Assembly: GCF_053078305.1 (NCBI RefSeq)
Contig: NZ_CP166879.1
Strand: one strand, 5' to 3'
DNA: 64,000 nt
The notes under the pieces are model-generated. The model did no database searches. It saw only the letters and a program-made list of their open reading frames with translations, and was not told the origin of the DNA. Below are positions 1-61,655 of the stretch, in pieces. Made by a program: the position numbers and the translations under genes. The stretch's first letter is position 1. Every line of letters begins with the position of its first letter.

Positions 1-520
1 TCTTTCGCTACCAGGCAGCGAGTGGGAAAAAGAAGATTACCTGAACCTCATCGAGCAACTGGATGAAGAAGGTTTTGATGACTTTACCCGCGTGCGTGAG
101 CTGTTGGGTCTGGCGACCGGGTCGGATAACGGTTGGTACACCCTGCGTATCGGTGAATTAAAAGCCATGCTGGCGCTGGCTGGTGGCGATCTGGAACAGG
201 CTCTGGTCTGGACCGAATGGACGATGGAGTTTAACTCATCGGTATTCAGCCCGGAACGCGCCAACTATTATCGCTGCCTGCAAACGTTGTTATTACTGGC
301 ACAGGAAGAAGATCGCCAGCCGCTGCAATATCTGAATGCGTTTGTTCGCATGTACGGCGCAGATGCCGTGGAAGCCGCCAGTGCGGCAATGAGCGGCGAA
401 GCGGCGTTTTATGGCTTGCAACCAGTAGATAGCGATCTGCACGCGTTTGCTGCACATCAGTCGCTGTTGAAGGCCTACGAAAAGCTGCAGCGCGCCAAAG
501 CAGCATTCTGGGCAAAATAA
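1..520 (+). CDS. ycaO: YcaO-family protein, C-terminal part (gene starts upstream of window)
   Basis: Open frame running in from window edge to stop at 520; sits directly upstream of focA-pflB as in E. coli; call by synteny and recalled sequence. Confidence 0.7.
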   Translation, partial: LSLPGSEWEKEDYLNLIEQLDEEGFDDFTRVRELLGLATGSDNGWYTLRIGELKAMLALAGGDLEQALVWTEWTMEFNSSVFSPERANYYRCLQTLLLLAQEEDRQPLQYLNAFVRMYGADAVEAASAAMSGEAAFYGLQPVDSDLHAFAAHQSLLKAYEKLQRAKAAFWAK

Positions 521-925
521 AATCAAATAGCCTACGCAATGTAGGCTTAATGATTCGTCTGAGTTATATTACGGGGCGTTTTTTTAATGCCCCGCTTTAC
601 ATATATTTGCATTAATAAAATAATTGTAATTATAAGGTTAAATATCGGTAATTTGTATTTAATAAATACGATCGATATTGTTACTTTATTCGCCTGGTGC
701 TCCCTTTTAATTAACTGTTTTAGCGGAGGATGCGGAAAAAATTCAACTCATTTGTTAATTTTTAAAATTTATTTTTATTTGGATAATCAAATATTTACTC
801 CGTATTTGCATAAAAACCATGCGAGTTACGGGCCTATAAGCCAGGCGAGATATGATCTATATCAATTTCTCATCTATAATGCTTTGTTAGTATCTCGTCG
901 CCGACTTAATAAAGAGAGAGTTAGT
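521..925 (+). promoter_or_regulatory. AT-rich focA-pflB upstream regulatory/leader region (multiple anaerobic promoters expected)
   Basis: ~400 bp strongly AT-rich non-coding stretch before focA GTG start; known FNR/ArcA-regulated promoter region in E. coli; individual sites not mapped here. Confidence 0.5.
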
Positions 926-1783
926 GTGAAAGCTGACAACCCTTTTGATCTTTTACTTCCTGCTGCAATGGCCAAAGTGGCCGAAGAGGCGGGTGTCTAT
1001 AAAGCAACGAAACATCCGCTTAAGACTTTCTATCTGGCGATTACCGCCGGTGTTTTCATCTCAATCGCATTCGTCTTCTATATCACAGCAACCACTGGCA
1101 CAGGCACAATGCCCTTCGGCATGGCAAAACTGGTTGGCGGCATTTGCTTCTCTCTGGGGCTGATTCTTTGTGTTGTCTGCGGAGCCGATCTCTTTACTTC
1201 CACAGTGTTGATTGTTGTTGCTAAGGCGAGTGGGCGCATCACCTGGGGTCAGTTGGCTAAAAACTGGCTAAATGTCTATTTTGGCAACCTGGTCGGCGCA
1301 CTGCTGTTTGTACTTTTAATGTGGCTTTCCGGCGAGTATATGACCGCAAATGGTCAATGGGGACTAAACGTCCTACAAACCGCCGACCACAAAGTGCACC
1401 ATACTTTTATTGAGGCCGTCTGCCTTGGTATCCTGGCAAACCTGATGGTATGTCTGGCAGTATGGATGAGTTATTCTGGCCGCAGCCTGATGGACAAAGC
1501 GTTTATCATGGTGCTGCCGGTCGCGATGTTTGTTGCCAGCGGTTTTGAGCACAGTATCGCAAACATGTTTATGATCCCGATGGGTATTGTAATCCGCGAC
1601 TTCGCATCTCCGGAATTCTGGACCGCTGTCGGTTCTGCACCGGAAAATTTTTCTCACCTGACCGTGATGAACTTCATCACTGATAACCTGATTCCGGTTA
1701 CGATCGGTAATATTATCGGCGGTGGTTTGTTGGTTGGGTTGACATACTGGGTCATTTACCTGCGTGAAAACGATCACCATTAA
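926..1783 (+). CDS. focA: Formate channel FocA (GTG start)
   Basis: 285-aa membrane protein beginning VKADNPFDLLLPAAMAKVAEEAG; the track ORF 587..1783 is an in-frame upstream extension through the AT-rich leader. Confidence 0.9.
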   Translation: MKADNPFDLLLPAAMAKVAEEAGVYKATKHPLKTFYLAITAGVFISIAFVFYITATTGTGTMPFGMAKLVGGICFSLGLILCVVCGADLFTSTVLIVVAKASGRITWGQLAKNWLNVYFGNLVGALLFVLLMWLSGEYMTANGQWGLNVLQTADHKVHHTFIEAVCLGILANLMVCLAVWMSYSGRSLMDKAFIMVLPVAMFVASGFEHSIANMFMIPMGIVIRDFASPEFWTAVGSAPENFSHLTVMNFITDNLIPVTIGNIIGGGLLVGLTYWVIYLRENDHH

Positions 1784-1837
1784 TGGTTGTCGAAGTACGC
1801 AGTAAATAAAAAATCCACTTAAGAAGGTAGGTGTTAC

Positions 1838-4120
<2,283 letters not shown>

Positions 4121-4162
4121 TTAGATTTGACTGAAATCGTACAGTAAAAAGCGTACAATAAA

Positions 4163-4188
4163 GGCTCCACGAAAGTGGGGCCTTTTTT
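4163..4188 (+). terminator. Rho-independent terminator after pflB
   Basis: GC hairpin ggctccac-gaaa-gtggggcc followed by T-run. Confidence 0.6.
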
Positions 4189-4311
4189 AGCACGAGAGCC
4201 TTTTTTGTCAGCTATCTATACTTTAAGGTGACTGCCAAAACAGACTCGACGTAGCCTTCGAGCTGCGCACCAACACGGCCTCAGATGGGCCACATCTGGA
4301 GAAACACCGCA

Positions 4312-5052
4312 ATGTCAGTTATTGGTCGCATTCACTCCTTTGAATCCTGTGGAACCGTAGACGGCCCAGGTATTCGCTTTATCACCTTTTTCCAGGGCTG
4401 CCTGATGCGCTGCCTGTATTGTCATAACCGCGACACCTGGGACACGCATGGCGGTAAAGAAGTTACCGTTGAAGATTTGATGAAGGAAGTGGTGACCTAT
4501 CGCCACTTTATGAACGCTTCCGGCGGCGGCGTTACCGCATCCGGCGGTGAAGCAATCCTGCAAGCTGAGTTTGTTCGTGACTGGTTCCGCGCCTGTAAAA
4601 AAGAAGGCATTCATACCTGTCTGGATACCAACGGTTTTGTTCGTCGTTACGATCCGGTGATTGATGAACTGCTGGAAGTAACCGACCTGGTAATGCTCGA
4701 TCTCAAACAGATGAACGACGAGATCCACCAAAATCTGGTTGGAGTTTCCAACCACCGCACGCTGGAGTTCGCTAAATATCTGGCGAACAAAAATGTGAAG
4801 GTGTGGATCCGCTACGTTGTTGTCCCAGGCTGGTCTGACGATGACGATTCAGCGCATCGCCTCGGTGAATTTACCCGTGATATGGGTAACGTTGAGAAAA
4901 TCGAACTTCTCCCCTACCACGAACTGGGCAAACACAAATGGGTGGCGATGGGTGAAGAATACAAACTCGATGGTGTTAAACCACCGAAGAAAGAAACTAT
5001 GGAACGCGTGAAAGGCATTCTTGAGCAGTACGGTCATAAGGTAATGTTCTAA
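4312..5052 (+). CDS. pflA: Pyruvate formate-lyase activating enzyme (radical SAM)
   Basis: 246 aa from [23 protein letters not shown]; CxxxCxxC-type radical SAM cysteine cluster ([10 protein letters not shown]); track ORF starts 9 codons upstream. Confidence 0.92.
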
Positions 5053-5062
5053 TTTCCCCGTA

Positions 5063-5096
5063 AAGCGGCAACTTTATTGAGTTGCCGCTTTTTTAT
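5063..5096 (+). terminator. Rho-independent terminator after pflA
   Basis: Hairpin aagcggcaac...gttgccgctt followed by TTTTTT. Confidence 0.6.
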
Positions 5097-5261
5097 TCCG
5101 CGCTGCATAAATAATTCAGAGCTCTATTTCTCACGCCCTTACAGCACAGCTTCCAAATGTATTACCCAAACCGCCAGTATATGTCCTGCGGCTTGCGCGC
5201 ATTTCTCGATTATGTAAAAACGGGTCAGATCTGCCAGAGTCAGCATCACCGACCACAATAA

Positions 5262-6692
5262 TTATTTACTATTCGCTTTACGCGCCAGCAGCGGGAATAT
5301 CAGTCCTAATCCTACCAGCACAAACGGCGTTGCAACATTCAGCGCCAACTGGAAGGTCCACTCTGCAGTGAAGGCTTCCATTTTCGGGAAGATCCCCGTC
5401 AAACAGGCAAAGGCGGTAAAGGCAAAACACCAAATCCCGACGGTCATTGCCAGAGGCTTATTACGAATAAAGACATATTCTGGTTTATATTTCTGCGCCA
5501 GGCGAACGACTGCAATAAATGCAACAAATACCCATAAATAACGCAGCGGCATCACTACCGAGTTAAGATTCAACAGCCATTTATAGAGATTGTTCATATC
5601 ACCGATGCCGAGAGTCGGCAGCATAATCAGAATTGCCACCAGCACCAGGGTCAGAAAATAGCCATTAACGGGCGTACCAGAAGCGTTGGTACGACATAAA
5701 CTGGCTGGAATATATTTGCTGTCAGCATCACCTAATAGCACTTTAAGCGGGGCATCAATCGAGAATACCAGCGCAGCTACTTGTCCCAGGGTATTCGCAA
5801 TGGCGTAAATCACCATTAAAGTATTACCCATGTTGTAATACTCGCCCAGCTTCTGAAAAGCGTAATATTGACCGTTAGTCATTAAGTCATCCGGGATATT
5901 ACGCGAGTCAAACATCATCCCCATCGCCAGTGAGCCCAGAATGGCACAAACCGCAACCATCACCGCCAAGCATAGCATCCCTTTTGGAAATTCTTTTCCT
6001 GGGTTGCGCGTTTGATTAACGTAAGGAGAAATCTTCTCTGCTCCGCCAACCGCGAAAACCAGCATTGAAATAGTGGTAATGTAGGTAAAGTCGATATGAG
6101 GAATGAACGTTTCCCAGGTAATGTTTGTGGTCGCAATATGCACTTCAGTAATCGCAGGCGCGGTTACCGCCATCGCCACATACAGGAGCGACATAACAAA
6201 CATCGCAATCCCTGCCACAGAACCGACGATTTTCAGCGATTTCATACCGCGTGAAGCAACCCACATAAAGAAGATAAACAGCACCAGCGTTAACCCCTGT
6301 AACGCTACGACTGAATATTCTTTGATTAGCGAACCGTCGCCTTTCATCGCCCAACCGAGCGCAATCAGTATTGCCTGGGGTTTTTGTGCCAGATAGGGAA
6401 TATGCACCACCCAGTAGGTCCACGCGGCGAGGTAAGCCAGTCCGGGTCCCATCGTGTGTTTAATCCAAGTACTGACCCCGCCTTTCCCATCTTTGAAGGT
6501 CGAGCCTAACTGACCAACAATTAGCGCATAAGGTGTGAAATAGAGCGCAAAGATAAACACCCATGAAAAAACAACCACCAGCCCCTGGTTGGCATAGTTA
6601 TTAACAACGTTGCCAAAACCCCAGACAGTGATAAAAGACATCAGCGCAATGTTGTACCATCGCAGCTGTTTTTCCTGAACATTCCCAGCCAT
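5262..6692 (-). CDS. ycaM: Putative amino-acid/polyamine (APC-family) transporter
   Basis: Polytopic membrane protein; likely start MAGNVQEKQLRWYNIALMSF (476 aa); track ORF extends 64 codons upstream. Confidence 0.75.
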   Translation of the reverse strand: MAGNVQEKQLRWYNIALMSFITVWGFGNVVNNYANQGLVVVFSWVFIFALYFTPYALIVGQLGSTFKDGKGGVSTWIKHTMGPGLAYLAAWTYWVVHIPYLAQKPQAILIALGWAMKGDGSLIKEYSVVALQGLTLVLFIFFMWVASRGMKSLKIVGSVAGIAMFVMSLLYVAMAVTAPAITEVHIATTNITWETFIPHIDFTYITTISMLVFAVGGAEKISPYVNQTRNPGKEFPKGMLCLAVMVAVCAILGSLAMGMMFDSRNIPDDLMTNGQYYAFQKLGEYYNMGNTLMVIYAIANTLGQVAALVFSIDAPLKVLLGDADSKYIPASLCRTNASGTPVNGYFLTLVLVAILIMLPTLGIGDMNNLYKWLLNLNSVVMPLRYLWVFVAFIAVVRLAQKYKPEYVFIRNKPLAMTVGIWCFAFTAFACLTGIFPKMEAFTAEWTFQLALNVATPFVLVGLGLIFPLLARKANSK

Positions 6693-8050: not shown

Positions 8051-8364
8051 GAATTAAAACCGTGAGGAAGTTCAAATTTCATGCGCATCATGCCACCGCC
8101 AAAAACATTGTCAATGGGTGAAAATACGCGCATATCGCAGCGGCGGTATTATCGATTTATATTACTCATTCATAACGCTAATACTGAAGAGATGATTAAT
8201 CTCATCTGATTGTTTTTATTGATCTAACACAAATTTCATACGCTTCGTTCAGTCGAAAAATTTCATGGTCACAGCAAACTCATATTTCCCGTCTATGCTT
8301 TCAGAGCAATGCATCGCGTCTGACCGATTTCAGACGTACCACTGACTCTCGAAAGGAGAAGAGG

Positions 8365-8991
8365 ATGACCAAACCGTATGTTCGTCTTGATAAAAATGAT
8401 GCTGCCGTTTTGCTTGTTGATCACCAGGCTGGTTTACTTTCCCTTGTACGGGATATCGAACCCGATAAGTTTAAAAATAACGTGCTGGCGCTGGGTGACC
8501 TGGCTAAGTATTTCAACTTACCAACTATTCTTACCACCAGTTTTGAAACCGGTCCTAACGGCCCATTAGTTCCAGAACTGAAAGCACAATTCCCCGATGC
8601 ACCTTACATTGCTCGCCCGGGCAATATTAATGCCTGGGATAACGAAGATTTTGTAAAAGCAGTCAAAGCGACAGGTAAAAAACAGTTAATTATTGCCGGT
8701 GTGGTAACCGAAGTTTGCGTGGCATTCCCGGCGCTTTCAGCCATTGAAGAGGGGTTTGATGTGTTTGTCGTGACTGACGCATCAGGGACCTTTAATGAAA
8801 TTACCCGGCATTCGGCGTGGGATCGCATGTCGCAAGCTGGTGCGCAATTGATGACATGGTTCGGCGTGGCTTGCGAGCTACACCGTGACTGGCGTAATGA
8901 TATTGAAGGACTGGCGACGTTGTTCTCTAACCACATTCCTGATTATCGTAATTTGATGACCAGTTATGACACGTTAACGAAGCAGAAATAA
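8365..8991 (+). CDS. ycaC: Isochorismatase-family hydrolase YcaC
   Basis: 208 aa, MTKPYVRLDKNDAAVLLVDHQAGL...; cysteine-hydrolase fold motifs; RBS aaggagaag upstream. Confidence 0.85.
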   Translation: MTKPYVRLDKNDAAVLLVDHQAGLLSLVRDIEPDKFKNNVLALGDLAKYFNLPTILTTSFETGPNGPLVPELKAQFPDAPYIARPGNINAWDNEDFVKAVKATGKKQLIIAGVVTEVCVAFPALSAIEEGFDVFVVTDASGTFNEITRHSAWDRMSQAGAQLMTWFGVACELHRDWRNDIEGLATLFSNHIPDYRNLMTSYDTLTKQK

Positions 8992-8995
8992 AAGA

Positions 8996-9019
8996 GAACC
9001 GGGGCCGAAACCCCGGTTG
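8996..9019. terminator. Bidirectional terminator between ycaC and dmsC
   Basis: Palindrome aaccggggccgaaaccccggtt between convergent genes. Confidence 0.55.
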
Positions 9020-9026
9020 TTACTGA

Positions 9027-9890
9027 TTAGCTTGCGACGGCCATCCCCACGGTCATATGCAAACCATAGAATACGCCGCGACCGATTAATTCCCCTGCCA
9101 GAAGCAGAATGAATGAGACGGATAGTAGCGGAACCGCAGGCTGATAACCTTTTAGCTGTGGTGCAATCCACAAGCACAGGGCAACGGCCAAAAGCACGAT
9201 CCGCCAGGACATCAGCGCACCATAGTCCGGCACCAGCGCTGCGGCCTGCTGCACAGAACTATGAATAGTCGCCAGCTCTGCGCCCTGCATCACTGACATC
9301 ACGCCACTCACTACCAGTGCAAGTACAGAAATGGCTGGCAGCAGACGCATCGCCCAGCCATCGACGCCAGCCAGACTCAGCAACAGGTAACCCAGTAACG
9401 GGCCGCCCATAAACATTGTCAGGAAGAAGCCCATCGGCGTCCAGATGCTGTACCAGGTCGGAACGGTATCAATGCTGTTATAGACACGCACCATCATCCA
9501 GACAAAGACTACGCCAAGAACCATCGTCACTACCAGCCACAGCGTACGCAATGCCGGTGACAGCTTTTTCAGCATTGCCAGCAACCAGCCGATGCCGCCT
9601 ACAGCAAAAAAGATCGAACCGCTGGCGATTTCGTTACTGAGTGCTGAAGCCCCTACCCGGTTGAGCGAGTTAAAGGCGCGCATCGGTGAACCAAGATGGA
9701 GCATAGAGGCGATAAAGCCAATGCCCATCAGCACCCATAAGCCAAACATGCAGGCGATAACACGCTGCTGGGTTTCTGCTCGCAGGTCGCCTTTGAGCAG
9801 CGCCAAAGCCAGAACGATAAAACCACCCGCCACACATTGCCCGAAGACCGTGAAGATCATCAGCGGCCATTCATGCCATCCACTTCCCAT
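9027..9890 (-). CDS. dmsC: DMSO reductase membrane anchor subunit
   Basis: Hydrophobic 287-aa protein from MGSGWHEWPLMIFTVFGQ; downstream of dmsB. Confidence 0.85.
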   Translation of the reverse strand: MGSGWHEWPLMIFTVFGQCVAGGFIVLALALLKGDLRAETQQRVIACMFGLWVLMGIGFIASMLHLGSPMRAFNSLNRVGASALSNEIASGSIFFAVGGIGWLLAMLKKLSPALRTLWLVVTMVLGVVFVWMMVRVYNSIDTVPTWYSIWTPMGFFLTMFMGGPLLGYLLLSLAGVDGWAMRLLPAISVLALVVSGVMSVMQGAELATIHSSVQQAAALVPDYGALMSWRIVLLAVALCLWIAPQLKGYQPAVPLLSVSFILLLAGELIGRGVFYGLHMTVGMAVAS

Positions 9891-9891
9891 C

Positions 9892-10509
9892 TCACACCTC
9901 CTTCGGGTTTGCCAGATAGCCAGTGGTATCCCCGGTCGGGCGGCTATTGGCATTGGGTTTGATCACAATATTCGGTTTGGTAAAGTGAGCTCGCGGCAAC
10001 GGCGCAACGGCCGCCAGATCGCCATGTTTTTTACGCAGCTCGTCGATAGGGCCGAAATCCAGCGCCCGCAGCGGACAAGATTCAACACAGATCGGCTTTT
10101 TACCCTCCGCAACACGGTCATAACAACCATCGCATTTGGTCATATGGCCTTTCGTTTCGTTATATTGCGGTGCGCCATACGGGCAAGCCATATGGCAGTA
10201 GCGGCAACCAATGCACACATCTTCATCGACCACAACAAAACCATCTTCACGTTTATGCATCGCACCGCTCGGGCAGACTTTAGTACAAGCCGGATCTTCG
10301 CAGTGGTTGCACGAAATCGACAGATAGTAGGCAAACACGTTCTGGTGCCAGACACCGTTATCTTCCTGCCAGTCGCCACCAGCATATTCATAAATGCGGC
10401 GGAAGCTGACTTCTGGTGTCAAATCTTTGTAGTCTTTACAAGCCAGCTCGCAGGTTTTGCAACCGGTGCAACGGCTGGAATCAATAAAAAATCCATACTG
10501 GGTTGTCAT
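9892..10509 (-). CDS. dmsB: DMSO reductase iron-sulfur subunit (4x[4Fe-4S] ferredoxin-like)
   Basis: 205 aa with multiple CxxCxxCxxxCP motifs. Confidence 0.92.
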   Translation of the reverse strand: MTTQYGFFIDSSRCTGCKTCELACKDYKDLTPEVSFRRIYEYAGGDWQEDNGVWHQNVFAYYLSISCNHCEDPACTKVCPSGAMHKREDGFVVVDEDVCIGCRYCHMACPYGAPQYNETKGHMTKCDGCYDRVAEGKKPICVESCPLRALDFGPIDELRKKHGDLAAVAPLPRAHFTKPNIVIKPNANSRPTGDTTGYLANPKEV

Positions 10510-12964: not shown

Positions 12965-13263
12965 AATGGCTCACTCAAGCTTGCTCACGATTGATTCCAG
13001 TAACAAACCGTATTGTGTAATTATTTCTATAGCAGATCGCTATATAGGCTTGTATACATCGAATAATTTGAAAATCAAAGAGATAGGTAGATTTTCACTC
13101 GAAAGTAGTATTACGTGTAAGTGAGGAGTAATTATTGTTCGGTATCAAAGGGAGACAAAAAAAGCGCCCGCAGGAGGTTTAACGCTACTTACTCCCCTTG
13201 ATGATTTGCTTATTTTTCAATGAGTAAATCAAAACAAGGGGAGCAAATAAGCACAAGTTACAA

Positions 13264-14256
13264 CTAATCGATGGACAGTTTATGGACACTTTCAGCCAGC
13301 GGATTAAAGCTGATTGCATCCTGTAAAAAGTCCGGCGAAAAATGCGCATACGTCATCGTTTGTTGAATCGTGGCATGGCCCAGGATTCGTTGTAGCGTAA
13401 CGATATTTCCGCCATTCATCATGAAATGTGTAGCGAATGTATGACGCATGACATGGGTGGCCTGCCCTTTCGGTAAGTCCGGCTTCACCTCCTGAAGGAT
13501 CTCCCGAAATCTGAGGTAATCAGCCTGGTACAACAATCCGGTTCTGCGGGTTTTAATTAACGCAAGTACCGCATCAGAAACGGGAACGGCGCGAGATTTT
13601 CCGTTCTTGGTGTTAAAGAACATCACGCGGTTACCTACAATATGTTCCCCACGTAAACCAGCTGCTTCACCCCACCTTGCCCCCGTGGAAAGACACAGAA
13701 TGGCAACACGCCGCGCATCTCCATCGAGTCGTTCAAGCAGTCGTTCAATCTCCTCATCTGAAAGAAAGGCCATCTCTGTGTTCCTGACTTTCAGCTTACG
13801 TATTCCCCGAACCGGGTTTTCGTTATGGAACACCTCACCCTCAATCAGCGAGCTGAACATTGCAGACAAGGCACACAAATCGCGGTTAATGCTGGAAGGC
13901 ATTAACCCGGCCTGTAATTTGTCGGACCGGTACCCGAGCATAAATTTTCGCGTCATCTGACTGGCACGAGGATCACCCATCTCACGGTTTATCTTTTCCA
14001 GTCTGACCCTGTAGGTATCCCCGTAATCCTGGTTACGACCATCAAGCAACCACCAGGCCTCTATCAGTTCGGATAACCGACGCTGATCTGCTGGCTTAGC
14101 CTGCCATGGCTTATCATGAAAATTCTGCAAAACATACCTTTCAAACTCCTGCGCCTTTGACTTCAGGGTAAAAATCTTACGAATCCGCTTTCCTTCCGTC
14201 CCTTGTGGCCTTACATCAACCTTATAACGTCCGTCTTTGAGTTGCTTAATCGACAT
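13264..14256 (-). CDS. int: Phage integrase, tyrosine recombinase (P2 Int-like)
   Basis: N-terminus MSIKQLKDGRYKVDVRPQGTEGKRIRK closely resembles P2 Int; C-terminal catalytic region HVMRHTFATHFMMNGGNIVTLQRILGH...TMTYAH; track ORF begins at an upstream TTG. Confidence 0.9.
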   Translation of the reverse strand: MSIKQLKDGRYKVDVRPQGTEGKRIRKIFTLKSKAQEFERYVLQNFHDKPWQAKPADQRRLSELIEAWWLLDGRNQDYGDTYRVRLEKINREMGDPRASQMTRKFMLGYRSDKLQAGLMPSSINRDLCALSAMFSSLIEGEVFHNENPVRGIRKLKVRNTEMAFLSDEEIERLLERLDGDARRVAILCLSTGARWGEAAGLRGEHIVGNRVMFFNTKNGKSRAVPVSDAVLALIKTRRTGLLYQADYLRFREILQEVKPDLPKGQATHVMRHTFATHFMMNGGNIVTLQRILGHATIQQTMTYAHFSPDFLQDAISFNPLAESVHKLSID

Positions 14257-14325
14257 GATTAGCCCCTCCAACGGATAAATTAACCAAACACTCCCTGCGG
14301 GATGAAACCCGCTCGATGTGTAACG

Positions 14326-14673
14326 TCAGCCAGCATTGCGGCCTGATCGGGATGATTTTTGGGTAACGTCGATTGAAGCCAGATCGCCCTCCGACTGAGA
14401 AGATCCATCAAGAGAGAGAGCCGGGGCAATTTGACCCCCAGCTTCAAACGTTTCATCAGTTGTTAACCAAAGTGCATATTTTTTAAAACGTAAATTTTTT
14501 GTGATCTTTAATAAGATCTCACTTCCGATTCCATCTTGCCTTCCCGTTTCGTAATACCTCTGCGTATTAACAGGAATCCCTGTAAGCTCAAAGAATTGCT
14601 TCCTTGTAAGCCTCTCACTTTTCCGGATCATCAAGATTTTTTCACCGATACTTATTGACAGTGTCGAATTCAT
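14326..14673 (-). CDS. Immunity repressor (P2 C-like)
   Basis: From MNSTLSISIGEKILMIRKSERLTRKQFFELTGIPVNTQRYYETGRQ...GQIAPAL; matches P2 C repressor pattern (EKIVLMRKSE...YYESGR...SGQIAPAL) by recall; adjacent to int. Confidence 0.75.
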   Translation of the reverse strand: MNSTLSISIGEKILMIRKSERLTRKQFFELTGIPVNTQRYYETGRQDGIGSEILLKITKNLRFKKYALWLTTDETFEAGGQIAPALSLDGSSQSEGDLASIDVTQKSSRSGRNAG

Positions 14674-14774
14674 ACCACTAAAATCCTCGCAAAAGTGTCG
14701 TAATTTCGACATTAAACAAACCAAAACAAACCTTCATAAGGTGCAATAGGCGCACCTGTGCGAGAGGATAACAA
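14674..14774. promoter_or_regulatory. Divergent lysis/lysogeny switch region between C-like repressor and Cox-like gene
   Basis: Tandem 10-bp direct repeat (t/a)aaacaaacc x2 at 14713-14732 plus palindrome ggtgcaataggcgcacc at 14740-14756; P2-type repressors bind direct repeats. Confidence 0.5.
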
Positions 14775-15299
14775 ATGCGGGACTTCATTGCCGATAAAGA
14801 GTTATCTGACACCGATCACACAACTGGAGCGGCGTACATCAACGCCGATACCAGTCAACAAGAAGCAACAGATAACAACGACGAACAAAAGCCACAGCGC
14901 ACATATAAAAAAGGGGCAACCCTGCGGCTGGATGGCCCAATAGCCGGGCTTTGCTCACTTGAAAAAGGGGCCGCCTACATCGGATTAACAAAAACAGCAT
15001 TACGCGCAGCTCTCCAGCGTAACCAGATGCCAGGGCATAAAACCCGCTCAAACCCTGAAGATGAGAATTCGGATGGTGTTTGGTGGTTTAACGTCAGAGA
15101 GTGGGACAAGCTGGCCGACGAACTCCCGGAATGTGAGCCACCAGAATGGCACAACTGGAAAAGCTACTGGACATACGACCGCCAGAAAAGAAAGTTTACC
15201 CCGGCTGATAAGGAAGATTGCCAGACCGTCAATGGAAAACGGGTTTACAAAGGCAGAAAGTCAAAGCTGGAACAGAGCCAGGATGTAAACGAACGGTGA
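14775..15299 (+). CDS. Cox-like excisionase/transcriptional regulator with long N-terminal extension (start uncertain)
   Basis: Segment GAAYIGLTKTALRAALQRNQMPG...GVWWFNVREW resembles P2 Cox HTH region by recall; divergent from repressor; 174-aa ORF is longer than P2 Cox (91 aa). Confidence 0.5.
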   Translation: MRDFIADKELSDTDHTTGAAYINADTSQQEATDNNDEQKPQRTYKKGATLRLDGPIAGLCSLEKGAAYIGLTKTALRAALQRNQMPGHKTRSNPEDENSDGVWWFNVREWDKLADELPECEPPEWHNWKSYWTYDRQKRKFTPADKEDCQTVNGKRVYKGRKSKLEQSQDVNER

Positions 15300-17595: not shown

Positions 17596-18150
17596 ATGAG
17601 ACTTACACCAATGGGAATACCGGGCAAAGCCCCGGCACATGTGAAGGCGTGGACACAGCAGGAAGATCGGTTACTCATCTCGCTTTATCAGGAACACAAC
17701 ACACATCAGATGGCTGAACGAATTCAGCGAACCCGTAAAGCAGTTATGCACCGGATTCGTTTTTTACGTAATCGTGGGCTGATTGGCCGCAAGAGAAAAG
17801 CACCACTGAGTACAGAAGCCATAGCCTTTCTTATTAAAAACCGTCATGTAAAAACCGCACAGGAAATGGCTCTGGAAGTGGGATGTAGTGAGTGCACAGT
17901 GAGGTACACACTGCGTAAACGGGGTTACAACCTGAAAAAATGCGGTGAGAACCACCATTGCGCCAGATACAGCGATCATCTGGTTGAGCTGGTCACGGAG
18001 CTACGCGACATACACAACATGACGTTCTGCATGATCGCTGAACACATCAACAGCACGATACAGATGCACATTAACGACGATGCGGCGTTTCATCTCTACC
18101 ACCGCCGCACAGCGGCTGACGCCGCGCTCTGTGAACTGTTACCGGGCTGA
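17596..18150 (+). CDS. Putative DNA-binding protein with two HTH-like segments (occupies P2 gpB position; function unknown)
   Basis: 184 aa; segments HQMAERIQRTRKAVMHRIRFLRNRG and TAQEMALEVGCSECTVRYTLRKRG look helix-turn-helix-like; RBS acggaggttatcgcg. Confidence 0.4.
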   Translation: MRLTPMGIPGKAPAHVKAWTQQEDRLLISLYQEHNTHQMAERIQRTRKAVMHRIRFLRNRGLIGRKRKAPLSTEAIAFLIKNRHVKTAQEMALEVGCSECTVRYTLRKRGYNLKKCGENHHCARYSDHLVELVTELRDIHNMTFCMIAEHINSTIQMHINDDAAFHLYHRRTAADAALCELLPG

Positions 18151-18266
18151 GTGATCATCATGCACACACAAAAAAACCGCTTGCCATGCCGCAATCAGTC
18201 AGGTTACATTCCCACTGCACCTCATAAAACGGGTGCCGGGATTACCACCCCGCCGACTACACAAGC

Positions 18267-18290
18267 GCACAACCGCGCCAGCGGTTTTTT
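18267..18290 (+). terminator. Rho-independent terminator inside early region
   Basis: Hairpin accgcgccagcggt followed by TTTTTTT. Confidence 0.55.
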
Positions 18291-18470
18291 TGTGCGTACT
18301 GTATCGCCACGTCTTTTTCGCGTCAGAATTATGGCGGGGCGTACGGGGCCGACTTCGGTCGGGCCGGGGTCTTGTGTAGCCGGTTGTGGTAACCCTGTAC
18401 GTCTCGCCACCCTGAGATTACCGCCTCGGGTTGGTGAGTTTTCACAACTTACTACACAAGGGGCCACACC

Positions 18471-18698
18471 ATGGCAAACCGCAAACAACAGCGCGTCCGC
18501 GCTGAGCGTCTTCACATCCGCACCGAAATCAACCGCAGACTCTGGCGCGCATCACGCGTCGCGCAAATCATGTACATCAACATGCTGCATGAACACGCAC
18601 ACGCGCTGTCAGACCGTTACTGTGCCGCCGTCTTCAGCTACCTGGCGGATGACCTGGCAGAGCTGCAGGACCTTATCAACCAGCAACACCACCACTAA
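18471..18698 (+). CDS. Hypothetical small protein
   Basis: 75 aa; ATG with aagggg RBS; preferred over overlapping low-complexity ORF 18151..18780. Confidence 0.4.
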   Translation: MANRKQQRVRAERLHIRTEINRRLWRASRVAQIMYINMLHEHAHALSDRYCAAVFSYLADDLAELQDLINQQHHH

Positions 18699-18766
18699 AC
18701 AACATCCTGAAGCCATCCCGCACCCGTGCGCGGGAGGCTTCCGCACGTCTGTTACCGGAGGTTCTC

Positions 18767-19189
18767 ATGAAGAACGTTAAGGGACTTTCAGATATTCAGG
18801 ATTTTTTTAACTGGATGTGGGCAGTGGATCCCCGGCTGGCTTCCCGCCTGAACGACTGGCACGACTATTACCGCCGCGCCTGTAAACAGGCCGCCAGACG
18901 CGTCACCACATACGGGGATTTCTCCTTCACCGTTGACGGCAGTTACCGCGTGGACGTGAAAGGCGATGGTGATGGTTTTGGTTTTGGTTTATTTCACATC
19001 AACGGAACCGACAGCACCGCCATCAGCTGGTCGTCGTCAGAGATGACGCTTGTTCTGGAAATGACAAACCACAGCGTGGCCGTGAAAGGTATATACACCG
19101 CAGAAGACTTTATCGGTGAATACCAGCGCCTTCTCGTGCTGTACCGGGCAGCGTTTCAGGCGGCAACTGCCGGGGAGTGCGACGCATGA
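18767..19189 (+). CDS. Hypothetical protein preceding replication gene
   Basis: 140-aa ORF; stop overlaps start of the replication gene. Confidence 0.4.
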   Translation: MKNVKGLSDIQDFFNWMWAVDPRLASRLNDWHDYYRRACKQAARRVTTYGDFSFTVDGSYRVDVKGDGDGFGFGLFHINGTDSTAISWSSSEMTLVLEMTNHSVAVKGIYTAEDFIGEYQRLLVLYRAAFQAATAGECDA

Positions 19190-21705
19190 GCGACCATAAC
19201 GCACAACTGGCGTACCCGTGGAACGCCCCGCTGCCGGTTATCGATCCTGAAACGTTCGGCAGAGCGCAACCAACCGCATTACGCCAGGCCATTCAGAGCT
19301 ACATCAACGAAGACATTCGCACTGACGCCAGACTGGATGAAGAAACCGTCGCCTTCCTGACAACCACAGACGAAGGGAAGCGAATTAATTCGCATCTTCA
19401 CCACGACGAAGAGCGTCGGATCAGACTGGAAAAACTGACGCGACACAAACGCGAAAATCCACCCACGCTGGTATCTGAAGCCATGGCAGAGCTGCGCGCC
19501 CTGCCGCCGTTTCTTGCCGGTCCGCTCATCCGTGACCTGGCCCGCCTGAGCCGCAAACAGGAGAGCGCACGCCGGGAAGGGCTTAAGAATAACAGCGCAT
19601 ATGCGGCGGATAACTTCGTTCGTCACGGCCTGCGTGCCCGCCTGAAACGTATCGCCCGTGTGAATGAACGCTTTGCCACCCCGGCCTTTAAGGCCACCGC
19701 CGCCCGCGAACGGCTGGATGAACTGCTTATGCTGCCGCAGCTGAGCCGTGACGAAATCCAGCGCCTTGCCACCCTGACCGCCACCGCGTTTTCCGCCGCA
19801 CTGGAGCGCGCATGTGATGAGGTCATCGAAAAGACCGGCAGGGGTGACGATGACCTGTTCACCTGGTTACTGACCTACCAGCCACTGGCACGCATGGCGT
19901 TAAAACTGGGTATCACACCACCCTGCTGGCCGTCGCTGGAAATCAGACCCGACCGCCGCACCGCCCCCGACCCGGAACAGGTGCCGGGTGCGGTCATGCG
20001 CCTTTCCTGTGCGACATGGTGGAACAGTCAGTTAAGACACCTCCGGGACATCTGGCGTGAAGAGCTGTTACGCGCCGCAGGTCTGGTGTCACGTAAGACA
20101 TCGGTATATATCAGCCATGAAGCGTTACTGGACTGGCGCGAAAAACGCCAGCGCACCCGCGATTTTCTGAAGGCCTGGGACATCGAGAACGAAGAGGGAG
20201 AACGGTTCAGCCTTGAGGATATCTACTGGGCAGGTCTCTCTAATCCGCGTAACCGCCGTAACGAGATGATGGCCTGCGTCCGGGGAATGGAGCAGGTCGC
20301 CGAAGCACGCGGCGACCTGGCGTTTTTCGTCACCGTCACAGCCCCTTCCCGTTTTCACAGCGTGAACGATGACGGCAGCCTGAACCCGAAATACTGCGGA
20401 GCAACGGTACGTGATGCCAGTGATTATCTGGTTTACCGCTTTTTCGCCGCCGTCCGCAGGGCCATCAACAAGGCCGGGCTGGGCTGGTACGGCGTGCGCA
20501 CAGTGGAGCCCCACCACGACGGTACACCGCACTGGCACATGCTGGTATTCACCAGCCCGGAAAACGAAGCCCGTATCACTGAAATCATGCGCAACGCCGC
20601 CATCAGGGAGGACCGCGCAGAGCTGGGTGATGATATCTCCCCGCGTTTTAAATGCGAAAAAATCGACCCGGCAAAAGGCACACCGGCGAGCTATATCGCG
20701 ACCTATATCGGTAAGAACCTGGACGCCAGCGCCTTCATGGGGAATGACCCGAAAACCGGCAAACCTTACGTCGATAAGGAATCAGGCAAAACCATGGCCG
20801 AAACCGTGGAGAACGCCATCGGCTGGGCGGCCCTTCACCGCATCCGCCAGTTCCAGTTCTTCGGTATCCCTCCCCGCCAGGTATGGCGCGAACTCCGCCG
20901 CCTTGCCGGGCAGATGGCCCGTAACCCGGCTGCCCCGCAGCGTCTGGACCATGACGACATTGACGCCATACTGGCCGCCGCCGACGTGGGATGTTTTGCC
21001 ACCTATATCACCCGCCAGGGTGGTGTGCTCATTCCCCGCAACACGTACCTGGTCCGCACCGCATACGAAACTGCCGAAGAGGCCAACGACTACGGCGAAT
21101 TCCCGCAACGCATTTACGGCGTCCGCGCCCCGTCACTCGGGGAGCGCTACACCATATGCACCCACCCGGACACCTGGAAACTGGTCAGACGTAAGCCGGA
21201 AAACGAAGACCGCACGGACGAGGGTTTTGACGTTGAGTGCGGCTTTGCCGCACCTTGGACTCGTGGCAATAACTGTCCCCCTGACCAGAATCTGACCATA
21301 AACGACCCGCCAGAAAGGCAGCCGGACGGACGCAGGGAGCAGCGACTTACCCTGCCGGAAGGTGATTTGGGTGAATGGTTAAGGTCACTGACCCCCACAG
21401 AGCGAAAACAACTCACCAGGCAGCTGAAAAACCCGCCACCTGACACGGAAACCGTGAAAAACGGCGGCATCAGTGCGCCCGCTGGCGGCGTTCGCGTGAG
21501 TGTCGCACTGACCGCTGAGCCACACATCACCGCACAAATCACCCGTGAGCTTGATGCGCTGGGCGTGCAGCTGCATGAAAGCGCCGTCGTTTCCGTCCGG
21601 CACGGTGCCCGCGTGCGCCTGGCTGACGGGCGCACCGCGTACTGGAATGACAGCACCCGCCGCATTGATATCACCCCCGCACCGAATACGGAGGCGCCAC
21701 AATGA
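19177..21705 (+). CDS. Replication initiation endonuclease (P2 gpA-like, HUH rolling-circle Rep)
   Basis: 842 aa; HUH-type motif EPHHDGTPHWHMLVF; located where P2 A lies relative to int-C-cox. Confidence 0.8.
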   Translation: MRRMSDHNAQLAYPWNAPLPVIDPETFGRAQPTALRQAIQSYINEDIRTDARLDEETVAFLTTTDEGKRINSHLHHDEERRIRLEKLTRHKRENPPTLVSEAMAELRALPPFLAGPLIRDLARLSRKQESARREGLKNNSAYAADNFVRHGLRARLKRIARVNERFATPAFKATAARERLDELLMLPQLSRDEIQRLATLTATAFSAALERACDEVIEKTGRGDDDLFTWLLTYQPLARMALKLGITPPCWPSLEIRPDRRTAPDPEQVPGAVMRLSCATWWNSQLRHLRDIWREELLRAAGLVSRKTSVYISHEALLDWREKRQRTRDFLKAWDIENEEGERFSLEDIYWAGLSNPRNRRNEMMACVRGMEQVAEARGDLAFFVTVTAPSRFHSVNDDGSLNPKYCGATVRDASDYLVYRFFAAVRRAINKAGLGWYGVRTVEPHHDGTPHWHMLVFTSPENEARITEIMRNAAIREDRAELGDDISPRFKCEKIDPAKGTPASYIATYIGKNLDASAFMGNDPKTGKPYVDKESGKTMAETVENAIGWAALHRIRQFQFFGIPPRQVWRELRRLAGQMARNPAAPQRLDHDDIDAILAAADVGCFATYITRQGGVLIPRNTYLVRTAYETAEEANDYGEFPQRIYGVRAPSLGERYTICTHPDTWKLVRRKPENEDRTDEGFDVECGFAAPWTRGNNCPPDQNLTINDPPERQPDGRREQRLTLPEGDLGEWLRSLTPTERKQLTRQLKNPPPDTETVKNGGISAPAGGVRVSVALTAEPHITAQITRELDALGVQLHESAVVSVRHGARVRLADGRTAYWNDSTRRIDITPAPNTEAPQ

Positions 21706-22106
21706 CCCGCTTTTATTGCGCCATGCAGCGCCAGCGTTTTGACGAAATGATGCGCCAGCGCACGCCCTTACTGACCCTGAACAACATTGCCACGGGGCCA
21801 CAACCGGGCGATGAGCTGGAAATCACGGTCGTCAGTCCCGATCGCACCACCACGGCCATCATCACCGACATACTCAACGGACGACCGGACAGCACCAACC
21901 GCAGCTGGCTTGTCGCCGTTCGTCCGCGCCGTCCGCCCGGAGAGCCGGAGCCGCTCACGCCTGCCGGAAAAATCATGCGGCAGTACCACGAAGAGCAGGA
22001 ACACAAACACAACGCAGAACTGACCAGAACACTGGCATCGATTAACCGCAAAGCGGCAATTGCCCGCTATGTGCATTCAGCCGCAGGCAGACAATCACGC
22101 AGGTAA
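21702..22106 (+). CDS. Hypothetical protein, translationally coupled to replication gene
   Basis: 134 aa; ATGA overlap with gpA-like stop. Confidence 0.4.
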   Translation: MTRFYCAMQRQRFDEMMRQRTPLLTLNNIATGPQPGDELEITVVSPDRTTTAIITDILNGRPDSTNRSWLVAVRPRRPPGEPEPLTPAGKIMRQYHEEQEHKHNAELTRTLASINRKAAIARYVHSAAGRQSRR

Positions 22107-22115
22107 ACAAAGACC

Positions 22116-22325
22116 ATGAACATAACCAGAAACAGCCAACTAAAGGAGCGCACCATGAACAGCACCAGGAGGATCAGCGACAGAGAGCTTACGAAAATGA
22201 TTGAGTCGGCACAGCAGCTGCTTTCACGACAAAACCCGGTCGTGGAAGAAACATGGTGGGAGAATTTACTGGCAGCACTGACCGAACTCCGGGAACGCCG
22301 GAACAACGAAGGAGCCGCCAAATGA
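22116..22325 (+). CDS. Hypothetical small protein
   Basis: 69-aa ORF; start may be internal (MNSTRRISDREL). Confidence 0.3.
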   Translation: MNITRNSQLKERTMNSTRRISDRELTKMIESAQQLLSRQNPVVEETWWENLLAALTELRERRNNEGAAK

Positions 22326-22648
22326 AGACCCCAGGAATGACCGGAAAGGAAATCATTTTACGCTACCTGGAAACGCACACACGTTTCAGCGCCCCAGAAC
22401 TGGTAGAAAAACTGGGCGTGAAAAGAACCGTCATTAATCAGGCCGCCGGGAAAATGGTACGGGAAGGCCTGCTGGTTGTGGATGGATACACGGACAAGAT
22501 AACGCATTACCGGAAGCCAACGGAAAAGGAACGACAGGAACTGGCGCAACGGGCTGAACGGCAGCAGGAAAAATCAGTCATCGAAGCCTGCAAGCGCAGC
22601 GAAATCATGAAGCGAATTCTGTTTATCTACGGCGCTGCATTCCGTTAA
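22322..22648 (+). CDS. Putative winged-helix DNA-binding protein
   Basis: 108 aa from MKTPGMTGKEIILRYLETHTRFSAPELVEKLGVKRTVINQAAGKMVREGLLVV; ATGA overlap with preceding ORF. Confidence 0.4.
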   Translation: MKTPGMTGKEIILRYLETHTRFSAPELVEKLGVKRTVINQAAGKMVREGLLVVDGYTDKITHYRKPTEKERQELAQRAERQQEKSVIEACKRSEIMKRILFIYGAAFR

Positions 22649-22656
22649 AGGAGCTG

Positions 22657-22680
22657 GTGAGTCGGGGCAAAAATTCTTTT
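22657..22680. terminator. Bidirectional terminator between convergent genes
   Basis: Hairpin ggggcaaaaattctttttgcccc. Confidence 0.5.
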
Positions 22681-22713
22681 TGCCCCGGCGAAGCAGCAGA
22701 CAAGCGAAGCGCG

Positions 22714-22977
22714 TCAGGAACGCCGCGACAGTAGTTCAAGCGCATACCGGCGATCTTCCGGGCGCATGGCATCAACAAGAAACTTCACCATATTGCGACC
22801 GGAGCGGGCGCCGGGGCTGAGGGTATGGGAAAAGGTCATCGTACAGACGAAGGTGTGCCCGCATTCGACATCACTGCATGCACAGTACAGATCCGCAAGT
22901 TCAGGGGTTTTCCAGTCTGTCTTCCGGATGACAGCAGGTGCGCCACAGTCAGGACACCGGGCTTTAAAAATCCGCAT
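22714..22977 (-). CDS. Ogr/Delta-family zinc-finger late-gene transcription activator
   Basis: From MRIFKARCPDCGAPAV...YCACSDVECGHTF: CPxC...CxxxxxCxxTF pattern of P2 Ogr; GGGAGG RBS 7 nt upstream of ATG. Confidence 0.7.
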   Translation of the reverse strand: MRIFKARCPDCGAPAVIRKTDWKTPELADLYCACSDVECGHTFVCTMTFSHTLSPGARSGRNMVKFLVDAMRPEDRRYALELLSRRS

Positions 22978-23014
22978 CTTACCTCCCGATAACACGTATC
23001 CCGGGGAAGACATT

Positions 23015-24088
23015 TTACCCGACCGGCACCACTTTTTCTTCCGCCACATGCCCGGCTTCCACATCAAAACGAAGATAAAGGTGTTCCGGTATATCGGGAT
23101 CGCTGTTCACGGCGTTCATGATTTTACGCTGAAGCGGTATCACCTCATCCTTGCGGTACGTTTCACGCGTCGTTTCCGGGTTAGGGATGGTGGCCCCGTT
23201 CGTGGGGATGATCCCCGCAAGACCGGCAGGAAAGCGGTGTGCCGTAAACACATCCTGGGCGCTGATCCCCTTGATGTTTGAAAATTCATCCTTGGCGCTC
23301 ACCTCACCAATCGGAATAATTTTCACCCCATCCGGCGAACCTTTGGGGATGTTGATGTACAGATTGCGGAAATTTCCCAGCCCCTTAGACTCCGCCACCT
23401 TCTCGCGGATCTCATCCTCCATCTCCGTGGTGATCCCAGGGTCGTTCGTATACAGCAAAAAGCCCATATGCGCCCCGTTGTTGTAGTAACGGCGACGAAA
23501 AAGGCTGGCCTCGCTGTTCAGCAGCGCCGAGTGAATGCCACCGATATAATCCGGCAGCCCGTAAATTTGCTGACGCGGATCATACATCCGCAGAAAGATA
23601 ATATCTTCCGGCGTATAGACCAGCGCGGGACCTTCCTGAAGCACCACGAACTCACCGGTTTTGCGGCGCCGGAGATACAGCGACGGAAGCGGCTCAAGTG
23701 CCACGACGTCGCCGAATACGTTACGCACCTTGAGCAGGGCGAGATCGCCGAACAACAGGTAGTCAAATACCGCCTGTTCCATCTGGTCCGTTGTGAGGCC
23801 ACCACCGGTATAGCCCCCCGCCACCATGTTACGGCGGGCATACAGCACCCCACCGTGCTGGGCGTTAAGGTTCGGGAGCTGCGCCAGTGCCAGGCGGTTA
23901 ATCGGCAGCTGCCAGTGGTTGTGTTCGTTGTCATACCAGATGTTATGGTAGTCCGTGCCGGTGGTCAGCACCGGTTCCGGCTGACCAAACGTGATTGTGC
24001 TGCCACGTGCGGGCGTGAATGCTTTTTTCGTCACGCGTGACGTTTTGTTTCTGCGTTTCTTGCTCATGCGGCTTTCCCGAAGGCCCAT
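23015..24088 (-). CDS. Portal (capsid vertex) protein, P2 gpQ-like
   Basis: 357 aa; size and position upstream of terminase ATPase on same strand as in P2 Q-P; family assignment by recall. Confidence 0.6.
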   Translation of the reverse strand: MGLRESRMSKKRRNKTSRVTKKAFTPARGSTITFGQPEPVLTTGTDYHNIWYDNEHNHWQLPINRLALAQLPNLNAQHGGVLYARRNMVAGGYTGGGLTTDQMEQAVFDYLLFGDLALLKVRNVFGDVVALEPLPSLYLRRRKTGEFVVLQEGPALVYTPEDIIFLRMYDPRQQIYGLPDYIGGIHSALLNSEASLFRRRYYNNGAHMGFLLYTNDPGITTEMEDEIREKVAESKGLGNFRNLYINIPKGSPDGVKIIPIGEVSAKDEFSNIKGISAQDVFTAHRFPAGLAGIIPTNGATIPNPETTRETYRKDEVIPLQRKIMNAVNSDPDIPEHLYLRFDVEAGHVAEEKVVPVG

Positions 24089-61224: not shown

Positions 61225-61312
61225 GGTGAGGTGTCCGAGTGGCTGAAGGAGCACGCCTGGAAAGTGTGTATACGGCAACGTATCGGGGGTTCGAATCCCC
61301 CCCTCACCGCCA
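61225..61312 (+). tRNA. serW: tRNA-Ser (anticodon GGA), long-variable-arm class II tRNA
   Basis: GGTGAGGTGTCCGAGTGGCTGAAGGAGCACGCCTGGAAAGTGTG...GGTTCGAATCCCCCCCTCACCGCCA; acceptor stem complementarity, T-loop GGTTCGAATCC, CCA end. Confidence 0.93.
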
Positions 61313-61351: not shown

Positions 61352-61655
61352 TTCGCATTTTATCTGTCTGTACGGCAGTGAACATGGTGGGCGGGTGGAG
61401 TATGTTACCTGTGAATTTCTAAGCTGCCTGTACGGCAGTGAACACAAATACTACACGTTTAGCCCGTTGTTAATAAAGCAAAACCATCTCATTTTCCTGC
61501 TACCACCCTTTTTTTATCCTTACCTTACCGCAGCACTAATTATCAACAACTTACCATCATCATCAAAAAAAGGGTCTGAACCTCCTCCCCCATAAATAAA
61601 AAGTCCGTAACCTCTTTCGAGATTACGGACTTCACCAACCTACTTAACAATCAGA

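Follow-up and report, generated by a model that had tools for sequence, protein, structure and literature searches.

The closest described relatives of the locus studied here are the immunity modules of phages P1 and P7, of satellite phage P4 and of the Gifsy-1 prophage. In the immI region of P1 and P7, the promoters P51a/b are followed by the sites a1 and b1, the c4 gene, the sites a2 and b2, and the genes icd and ant. In P4, the promoter PLE precedes seqA, the CI RNA and seqC, and further downstream lie epsilon, orf151, orf106 and alpha. Gifsy-1 carries isrK, then orf45 (STnc1160), then anrP. Experiments in Gifsy-1 have shown that IsrK controls the translation of a downstream anti-repressor and prophage induction: the short IsrK in trans can switch on anti-repressor translation and drive induction, a processed RNA, STnc1160, comes from the downstream region, and IsrK was called a structural homologue of P4 SeqA (PMC4825925). 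The sign of the regulation differs between these models. C4/CI represses in P1 and P4, whereas IsrK activates in Gifsy-1.

The module we describe here is already known, in the sense that its mechanism has been worked out in P1, P4 and Gifsy-1, and the copy in our window (the whole stretch of 64 kb of DNA that was analysed) is a copy of curated RNA families. We think it very likely that a 320-base gap in this window is an antisense gate of the P1/P4/Gifsy-1 type, acting on an anti-repressor-like gene and a replication gene. The window is E. coli chromosome with a P88-type P2-family prophage (genus Xuanwuvirus); its positions 1-6000 are 100% identical to E. coli strain ET350 over pflB-focA-ycaO. 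The prophage genes that matter for the argument are as follows.

13264-14271, minus strand: integrase
14326-14724, minus strand: C repressor, 41% identity to P2 C
14775-15299, plus strand: Cox
17596-18150: helix-turn-helix protein gene, directly upstream of the gap
18471-18698, plus strand: 75-aa gene of the 'Derepression' family (P4 epsilon-like), first gene after the gap
18767-19189, plus strand: 140-aa conserved phage ORF (phrog_3237, E 1.9e-50), which overlaps the gpA start
19177-21705, plus strand: gpA-type replication initiator, a nicking endonuclease (Pfam PF05840, 356 bits)

Small early genes lie in a run between Cox and the helix-turn-helix gene. The gap extends from the stop codon of the upstream ORF at 18150 to the ATG of the next well-supported ORF at 18471, which is the extent that an earlier note on this DNA had given it. 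The first protein after the gap matches Pfam PF25738 (30.6 bits, cut-off 27) and phrog_3688, and aligns with P4 epsilon in BLASTP (33% identity over 66 aa, E 1e-7). Its variable columns are spread over the three codon positions as 32/28/55, an excess at third positions. The gpA homologue is 33% identical to P2 gpA (E 1e-80) and lies downstream in the same transcription unit as the RNA module. Within and around the gap we find the following elements.

18164-18184, plus strand: A-rich segment (ACACACAAAAAAACCGCTTGC), upstream of and overlapping the -35 hexamer
18181-18210, plus strand: sigma-70 promoter-like site TTGCCA-18 nt-TACATT from a promoter scan (-35 at 18181, -10 at 18205)
18217-18291, plus strand: isrK-type leader sRNA (Rfam RF01394, 63.6 bits against a cut-off of 50)
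18242-18248, plus strand: a1 (TTACCAC), in the loop of isrK hairpin 2, exact complement of C4 a'
18257-18265, plus strand: b1 (CTACACAAG), single-stranded in isrK, complement of C4 b'
18271-18291, plus strand: isrK intrinsic terminator (stem AACCGC / GCGGUU, loop GCCA, then U7)
18327-18414, plus strand: C4/CI-type antisense RNA gene (Rfam RF01695, 79.6 bits against a cut-off of 45)
18371-18379, plus strand: b' (CUUGUGUAG), in the 12-nt loop of C4 hairpin 2
18386-18392, plus strand: a' (GUGGUAA), single-stranded linker of the C4 three-way junction
18418-18424, plus strand: a2 (TTACCGC), pairs with a' via one G-U pair
18452-18460, plus strand: b2 (CTACACAAG), abuts and overlaps the Shine-Dalgarno sequence AAGGGG

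Comparison with P1, P4 and Gifsy-1

The order and spacing of these elements are those of P1 immI. The P1 record annotates the promoter P1c4, a1, b1, a 77-nt C4, a2, b2 and icd, and the window has a counterpart for each of them. The -10 hexamer and a1 are 32 nt apart in both, b1 and the C4 5' end are 67 nt apart in P1 and 68 nt in the window, and b2 and the start codon (of icd in P1) are 11 nt apart in both. The two loci also share the RF01695 C4 fold, a terminator-like hairpin, a b2 site placed on the ribosome-binding site of the first downstream gene, and the AAUUAU|GG and GCCACC sequence contexts at the ends of C4. They differ in cargo, which is an epsilon-like protein and gpA in the window but Icd and Ant in P1, and in their carrier, a P2-family phage as opposed to a plasmid prophage. 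They also differ in the leader, which falls under the isrK model here and under the c4-a1b1 model in P1, and no C1-type operator was seen at the window promoter. A LexA box near this promoter was considered by eye and dropped, the half-site TACTGTAT at 18297-18304 lacking a matching right half.

In P4, whose seqA/CI region has been defined by experiment, both Rfam models match in the same order as in the window. The isrK match, at P4 positions 8692-8615, falls on the seqA region, and the C4 match falls on the CI RNA gene. The gene order after the RNA is shared as well: an epsilon-like gene, a small ORF and a replication gene in the window correspond to epsilon, the two small ORFs and alpha in P4. 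Even the old annotation of a protein over the RNA ('cI', Ash family) recurs. In contrast to P4, whose alpha is a primase-helicase, the window has a rolling-circle nickase in gpA, and it has no Icd/Kil-like ORF between the RNA and the epsilon-like gene. The second ORF of the window (140 aa) has no detectable similarity to P4 orf151. Moreover, what the window carries is a whole P2-like phage, which encodes C and Cox proteins itself. That P88-like, helper-type phages carry the same cassette as the satellite P4, judged by gene order, suggests that RNA immunity and epsilon may have moved together as a cassette between helper and satellite.

With Gifsy-1 the window shares a match to the isrK family, here with a putative promoter of its own and a terminator that would be leaky. 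A downstream RNA complementary to IsrK, which in the window is probably processed and stable as well, and a predicted gate on an anti-repressor-type gene, hence on prophage induction, are further points of likeness (PMC4825925). Gifsy-1 is, however, a lambdoid phage in which the cargo AnrP leads to AntQ, whereas the window carries a P2-family phage. The published activation in Gifsy-1 also works through a translated 45-codon ORF, and a conserved equivalent of this ORF was not found in the P88-like group.

Two RNA genes and their target sites

The earlier note had offered a structured regulatory RNA as one explanation of the gap and an Rfam search as a way to check it. The search yields two RNAs, isrK and C4/CI, both of known families and both above the gathering scores of RF01394 and RF01695. 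In an Rfam scan of the whole window, on the plus strand, their E-values are 2.9e-11 (isrK) and 5.7e-14 (C4). Both matches are full length: isrK covers model positions 1-77, including the terminal intrinsic terminator, and C4 covers model positions 1-87. The same two models match phage P88, a prophage of E. coli STEC316 and satellite phage P4.

The promoter-like site in front of isrK matches the consensus at 9 of 12 positions. Its predicted transcription start, at about 18217, falls on the first position of the isrK model. The two hexamers do not vary among ten P88-like loci, even where the spacer has diverged (as in L172). The leader itself folds into two 5' hairpins, a single-stranded stretch and the intrinsic terminator, and energy minimisation reproduces this fold. 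It is the counterpart of P4 seqA and of the P1 a1b1 leader. The c4-a1b1 model (RF03163), which scores 51 bits on the P1 leader against a cut-off of 46.7, has no match between 17900 and 18800 at E-values up to 10. The window leader has two hairpins and the a1/b1 placement of the P1 leader, yet falls under the isrK model. Hfq binding is a family trait of RF01394 and is putative for the copy in the window.

The terminator described in the earlier note is there, with stem arms at 18271-18276 and 18281-18286, the loop GCCA between them and a T7 run at 18285-18291. A hairpin followed by a T-run is found between b1 and C4 in 62 of the 67 family representatives. That the terminator is part of a small RNA, and that target sites are repeated around it, had no place in that note. 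Its three GC-rich stems are also present and can now be named: they are the outer helix of C4, a hairpin with a UUCG loop, and a hairpin just 3' of C4 ('accctgag...ctcgggt') that shows a2 in its loop.

C4 adopts a three-helix fold in which a long outer helix encloses two hairpins. The outer helix, 'ggcggggcgtacgggg...ccctgtacgtctcgcc', has 17 bp and pairs 18332-18348 with 18393-18409. Hairpin 1, inside 'ggccgacttcggtcgggcc', pairs 18349-18353 with 18358-18362 around the UUCG loop. When its ends are placed by comparison with those annotated for P1 C4, the predicted mature RNA extends from about G18333 to C18411 (~79 nt); the P1-like contexts of both ends, AAUUAU|GG on the 5' side and GCCACC on the 3' side, are kept in the window. 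It is probably excised from a longer transcript by RNase P as a tRNA-like RNA, as its relatives are.

Relatives of C4 were collected with a strict 22-base pattern, which gave clean matches on about 120 viral contigs. An earlier 14-base pattern had been too loose, with about 9 true C4 copies among more than 80 loci that were mostly chance matches. The viral contigs, the window and annotated loci together provided 108 unique C4 copies with 69 combinations of loop and linker. Over 68 sequences, 94.9% of the cells of the C4 fold are paired, compared with 37-48% when the partners are slid, and 16 of 27 pairs have changed on both sides (291 such cells); helix 3 and the GGG/CCC pairs carry no information here, having been set by the search pattern. 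Covariation across homologous prophages, another check that the earlier note had named, thus speaks for a conserved structure, with 94.9% of cells paired in C4 and 99-100% at the a and b sites described below.

The mechanism is defined by the repeated a and b sites. The 9-mer CTACACAAG has three occurrences in the 64 kb, where 0.19 would be expected, and all three lie inside the element: two in the sense orientation, as b1 and b2, and one as the complement in the C4 loop. The end of b2 is 11 nt before the ATG at 18471. The ten P88-like loci share an almost unchanged scaffold; hypervariability is confined to the six a/b blocks, which change together. In these loci all 160 cells of the pairings a1:a' and b1:b' are intact (100%), and 11 of 16 pairs show compensatory change. 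For a':a2 and b':b2 the figures are 99.4% of cells and 10 of 16 pairs, and sliding the partners as a control leaves 26-51% paired.

The wider family behaves in the same way. Among 67 specificity types from viral contigs, 58% of loci have in their upstream flank, and 70% in their downstream flank, a stretch of 8 nt or more that is complementary to their own loop, each time against 2% of mismatched pairs, and these complements sit at fixed offsets on both sides. The a and b types re-assort independently; one b type, for example, occurs with three different a types. We had also tried the duplex energy between the single-stranded part of C4 and its flanks. It came to -45.3 and -37.6 kcal/mol, where the background is -28 +/- 5, but proved a poor statistic, several unrelated windows scoring as well. 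The energy statistic was therefore set aside as uninformative, and exact-word matching and covariation tests were used instead.

A predicted gate and the other readings of the gap

By analogy with P1, P4 and Gifsy-1, we would expect the module to work in the following way. A constitutive promoter (-35 at 18181, -10 at 18205) would start an RNA near 18217. The majority of transcripts would end at the terminator at 18271-18291, giving an isrK-type sRNA of ~75 nt with a1 and b1. The C4/CI-type RNA would be carried by read-through transcripts and by those from an upstream early promoter, and RNase P would cut out of them a tRNA-like C4 of ~79 nt, as in P1 and P4. The b' segment in the hairpin loop and the a' segment in the junction linker would then pair with a2 and b2 on the mRNA. 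With b2 overlapping the ribosome-binding site of the epsilon-like gene, this pairing would block translation, and polarity would reduce expression of the downstream ORF and gpA. The anti-repressor-like protein and replication would be kept silent in the lysogen, which would also gain a sequence-specific immunity to related phages. The a1 and b1 sites of isrK would compete for the same segments of C4, and the ratio of isrK to C4 could set the switch, as has been shown for IsrK in Gifsy-1.

Repression as the direction of regulation, polarity on gpA and an anti-repressor activity of the epsilon-like protein are all carried over from the homologous systems, as is processing by RNase P. The first gene after C4 varies in the wider family between Icd-like, Bro-N/Ant-like, Rha-like and epsilon-like types, all of them cargo of the anti-repressor or kil type. 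P4 epsilon is said to act on P2 C, to which the C repressor of this prophage is 41% identical. By this circumstantial comparison, the epsilon-like protein could plausibly counteract the P2-type C repressor of its own phage. Since gpA is essential for lytic growth, some bypass of the gate must exist. It should also be said that in a fold of the full-length transcript b' is predicted to pair with b2 in cis, and hence action in trans by the processed RNA is not the sole possibility.

One could argue that the sign of the regulation is the opposite one, which is conceivable although we hold it to be somewhat unlikely. As in Gifsy-1, the long isrK-C4-mRNA would fold into a form silent for translation until isrK in trans opened the C4 region. 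A small ORF that begins with the conserved AUG of 'UUAUGG' (18331) would then be translated and couple ribosomes into the downstream gene, such that the module would induce the epsilon-like gene rather than repress it. The Gifsy-1 isrK-orf45-anrP experiments fit this scheme (PMC4825925). In the window this AUG is found at the 5' end of C4 and 115 nt from the predicted start, and the first AUG of orf45 in Gifsy-1 is at position 107, if orf45 is equated with the C4 region from the numbering in the paper (PMC4825925). In addition, a1 and b1 of isrK are perfectly complementary to a' and b', and alternative pairings in cis are predicted. Against this, the AUG is absent in 16 of the 67 family members, and its ORF varies between 8 and 367 aa and is frameshifted in two relatives (L159 and L195). 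In the window, the ORF from 18331 has 149 codons and runs out of frame across the entire epsilon-like gene, hence not a geometry for coupling. Moreover, b2 sits on the ribosome-binding site, as it does at the repressive site of P1. If, on the other hand, the gap were a plain operon boundary, with the terminator closing the upstream early genes and a new promoter for the replication genes, or a decayed relic in which a C4-like fold no longer works, one would understand why it holds both a terminator and a promoter-like site and why a2 has one non-Watson-Crick pair. To us this is very improbable. The promoter precedes the terminator instead of following it, none of the six pairing sites is broken and they covary in relatives, and the element is retained, at 80-95% identity, in some 1,178 of 5,426 complete E. 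coli genomes. The transcriptional boundary suggested by the earlier note is right in so far as a promoter-like site and a terminator lie inside the gap, but these belong to the RNA module and are not a mere operon separator.

That the gap encodes a protein of the Ash or transcriptional-regulator kind (ORF 18151-18780 or the reverse ORF 18222-18515), with the RNA folds incidental, seems extremely unlikely to us. In its favour, the frame is open in all ten P88-like loci, PHROGs 995, 821 and 6928 match the translation, PGAP calls an 'ash family protein' pseudogene at this site in E. coli STEC316, and Pfam Phage_ASH matches the STEC316 translation with 26.6 bits against a cut-off of 26. Yet the gap part of ORF 18151-18780 has no coding signature: its variable columns fall evenly over the codon positions (34/34/34), unlike those of the neighbouring epsilon-like gene. 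Indels of +1 and -1 in L159 and L195 change about 57 codons, yet the nucleotides are conserved. The ORF crosses the intrinsic terminator, and it overlaps in another frame with a gene that Pfam supports. Its window translation matches nothing in Pfam or NCBIfam, and neither it nor the sub-ORF from 18331 matches the Ash family (PF10554) in particular; the reverse ORF has no family match either. We have rejected both ORFs as genes on these grounds (no codon periodicity, frameshifts in relatives, no Pfam or NCBIfam match), and the suspicion in the earlier note that the spanning ORF is spurious was well founded. In P4, Pfam Phage_ASH itself scores 59.7 bits on the obsolete 'cI protein' ORF, and its match coincides exactly with the CI RNA gene. 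The immunity factor of P4 has reportedly been shown to be an RNA and not the 'cI' protein. There is, finally, next to no chance that the gap is a replication origin or a protein-binding element for the adjacent replication genes, an origin-like element having been another option of the earlier note. The gap is indeed next to gpA, and a 21-nt inverted repeat flanks isrK. But no iterons, AT-rich repeats or AT-rich unwinding region were found in the gap, the ori nick site of P2 is placed within gene A in its record, and the RNA model accounts for every conserved feature.

Possible read-through, annotation and spread

The inverted repeat just mentioned (I1) pairs the A-rich segment at 18164-18184 with the 3' half and U-tract of the isrK terminator (18277-18297), 19 of 21 positions being complementary. 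In a predicted fold of 18140-18297, the long helix between these two segments replaces the terminator, while in a fold of 18217-18297 the terminator is kept. The segment is invariant in the ten P88-like loci. Lying upstream of the isrK start, it would be present only in RNA from the phage early promoter. Two roles are conceivable for it, that of an UP element and that of an anti-terminator arm. As a trait of the whole family, such an arm was rejected: its complementarity is strong in 16 of 63 family members, which belong to only two clades, there is no covariation, and the mean duplex energy is -15.0 for own arms compared with -13.4 for cross-pairs. From the folds of the window we may then consider a terminator that depends on the source promoter, with upstream early transcripts reading through and own-promoter transcripts ending. 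We regard this as a rather doubtful proposal. If it were true, lytic early transcripts would reach C4, the epsilon-like gene and gpA, and RNA from the module's own promoter would yield only isrK. This would explain how an essential replication gene can lie behind a terminator and an immunity RNA.

Returning to the antisense gate that we prefer, its recognition as an isrK/C4 module removes a spurious ORF and accounts for the non-coding gap. It also predicts RNA immunity in P88-like P2-family prophages, with control over an epsilon-like anti-repressor and a replication gene. The a/b specificity blocks, which are short and re-assort freely, would define which of these phages are mutually immune. 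The main value of this result lies in correcting protein mis-annotations and in predicting types of RNA immunity; it opens no new biological question.

The mis-annotations concern families as well as single records. The PHROG 'transcriptional regulator' families, the 'ash family protein' pseudogene of PGAP and Pfam PF10554 appear to be built on translated RNA genes. PF10554 also matches the STEC316 translation of the isrK-C4 region, as described above. The frame of ORF 18151-18780 is probably open owing to the GC-rich RNA. A search of the available literature found no description of the module in P88-like phages. About a fifth of the complete E. coli genomes (1,178 of 5,426) carry similar copies of the element. 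In public records it is mostly unannotated or given as a protein ('ash family protein', 'transcriptional regulator', 'Rha protein' or 'hypothetical protein'), but at least one GenBank record already labels copies of it 'isrK Hfq binding RNA' and 'C4 antisense RNA'.

Protein families over the RNA genes

The two RNA genes of the isrK-C4 module and the spacer between them can also be read as protein. The regions concerned are as follows:

18151-18470 of the window, isrK-spacer-C4 RNA genes of the prophage
8168-8584 of satellite phage P4, region of the RNA genes
6010-6270 of the E. coli STEC316 prophage locus, isrK-spacer-C4 RNA genes

Pfam family PF10554 ("Ash protein family") corresponds to such conceptual translations. 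The same is true of PHROGs 6928, 995, 821, 3960, and 29966, and the PGAP "ash family protein" pseudogene is another such translation. In P4, the PF10554 match to the obsolete "cI protein" ORF coincides exactly with the CI RNA gene. For members such as these, if not more widely, PF10554, the five PHROGs, and the PGAP ash call seem to be spurious.

Many Stx-converting phages of the lambdoid type also have the module, with an identity of about 70%; the matches include Stx2a- and Stx2c-converting phages, mEp460, ST64B, and Hafnia phage yong2. In the lambdoid Stx-converting phages it mostly carries no annotation, or is called "Rha protein," "regulatory protein," or "Ash family protein." Among these matches, LC710661 is the single record that names the RNAs.

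Re-assortment and predicted folding of the module

The short target and antisense pairing sites that would set immunity specificity (a and b blocks) occupy three stretches of our alignment of the window with nine P88-like loci:

Columns 114-138, 244-265, and 291-334, a and b specificity blocks

Among these closely related phages, the a and b blocks re-assort independently. The b type CAACCAAAG, for example, is combined with three a types (TTTCCAC, TTCGCAG, and TTGGAAC). By implication, recombination takes place between these two short RNA-immunity determinants.

Around isrK lies a 21-nt inverted repeat with 19 of 21 positions complementary:

18164-18184, arm just upstream of the isrK promoter
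18277-18297, arm comprising the terminator 3' strand and U-tract

In the predicted fold of an RNA initiated upstream, pairing of these arms displaces the terminator. The inverted-repeat arm may be a promoter-dependent anti-terminator, or it may merely be an UP-element A-tract.

Cargo slot, probable attachment site, and CRISPR-like repeats

Behind the replication gene gpA we compared two regions:

21702-23281 of the window, segment after gpA
8856-10131 of phage P88, corresponding segment

In P88 and in the prophage of STEC316, gpA is directly followed by ParM and a partition protein, whereas the window's prophage has other small ORFs at this place (134, 131, and 171 aa; the first is phrog_14984). 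This segment is therefore a variable cargo slot.

The sRNA STnc130 has a full-length match (122 bits) at 13055-13189 (+), directly beside the integrase gene of the prophage (13264-14271, -). This sRNA locus, or the sequence next to it, is the probable attachment site of the prophage.

Next to tRNA-Ser(GGA) (61225-61312), a 28-nt repeat (GTTCACTGCCGTACAGGCAG...) is present twice, with about 32 nt between the copies:

61357-61384, minus strand, repeat copy
61416-61443, minus strand, repeat copy

Rfam CRISPR-DR4 matches one of them, and the window holds no cas genes near the pair. Many E. coli strains carry a short orphan CRISPR array near serW, which the pair presumably represents.
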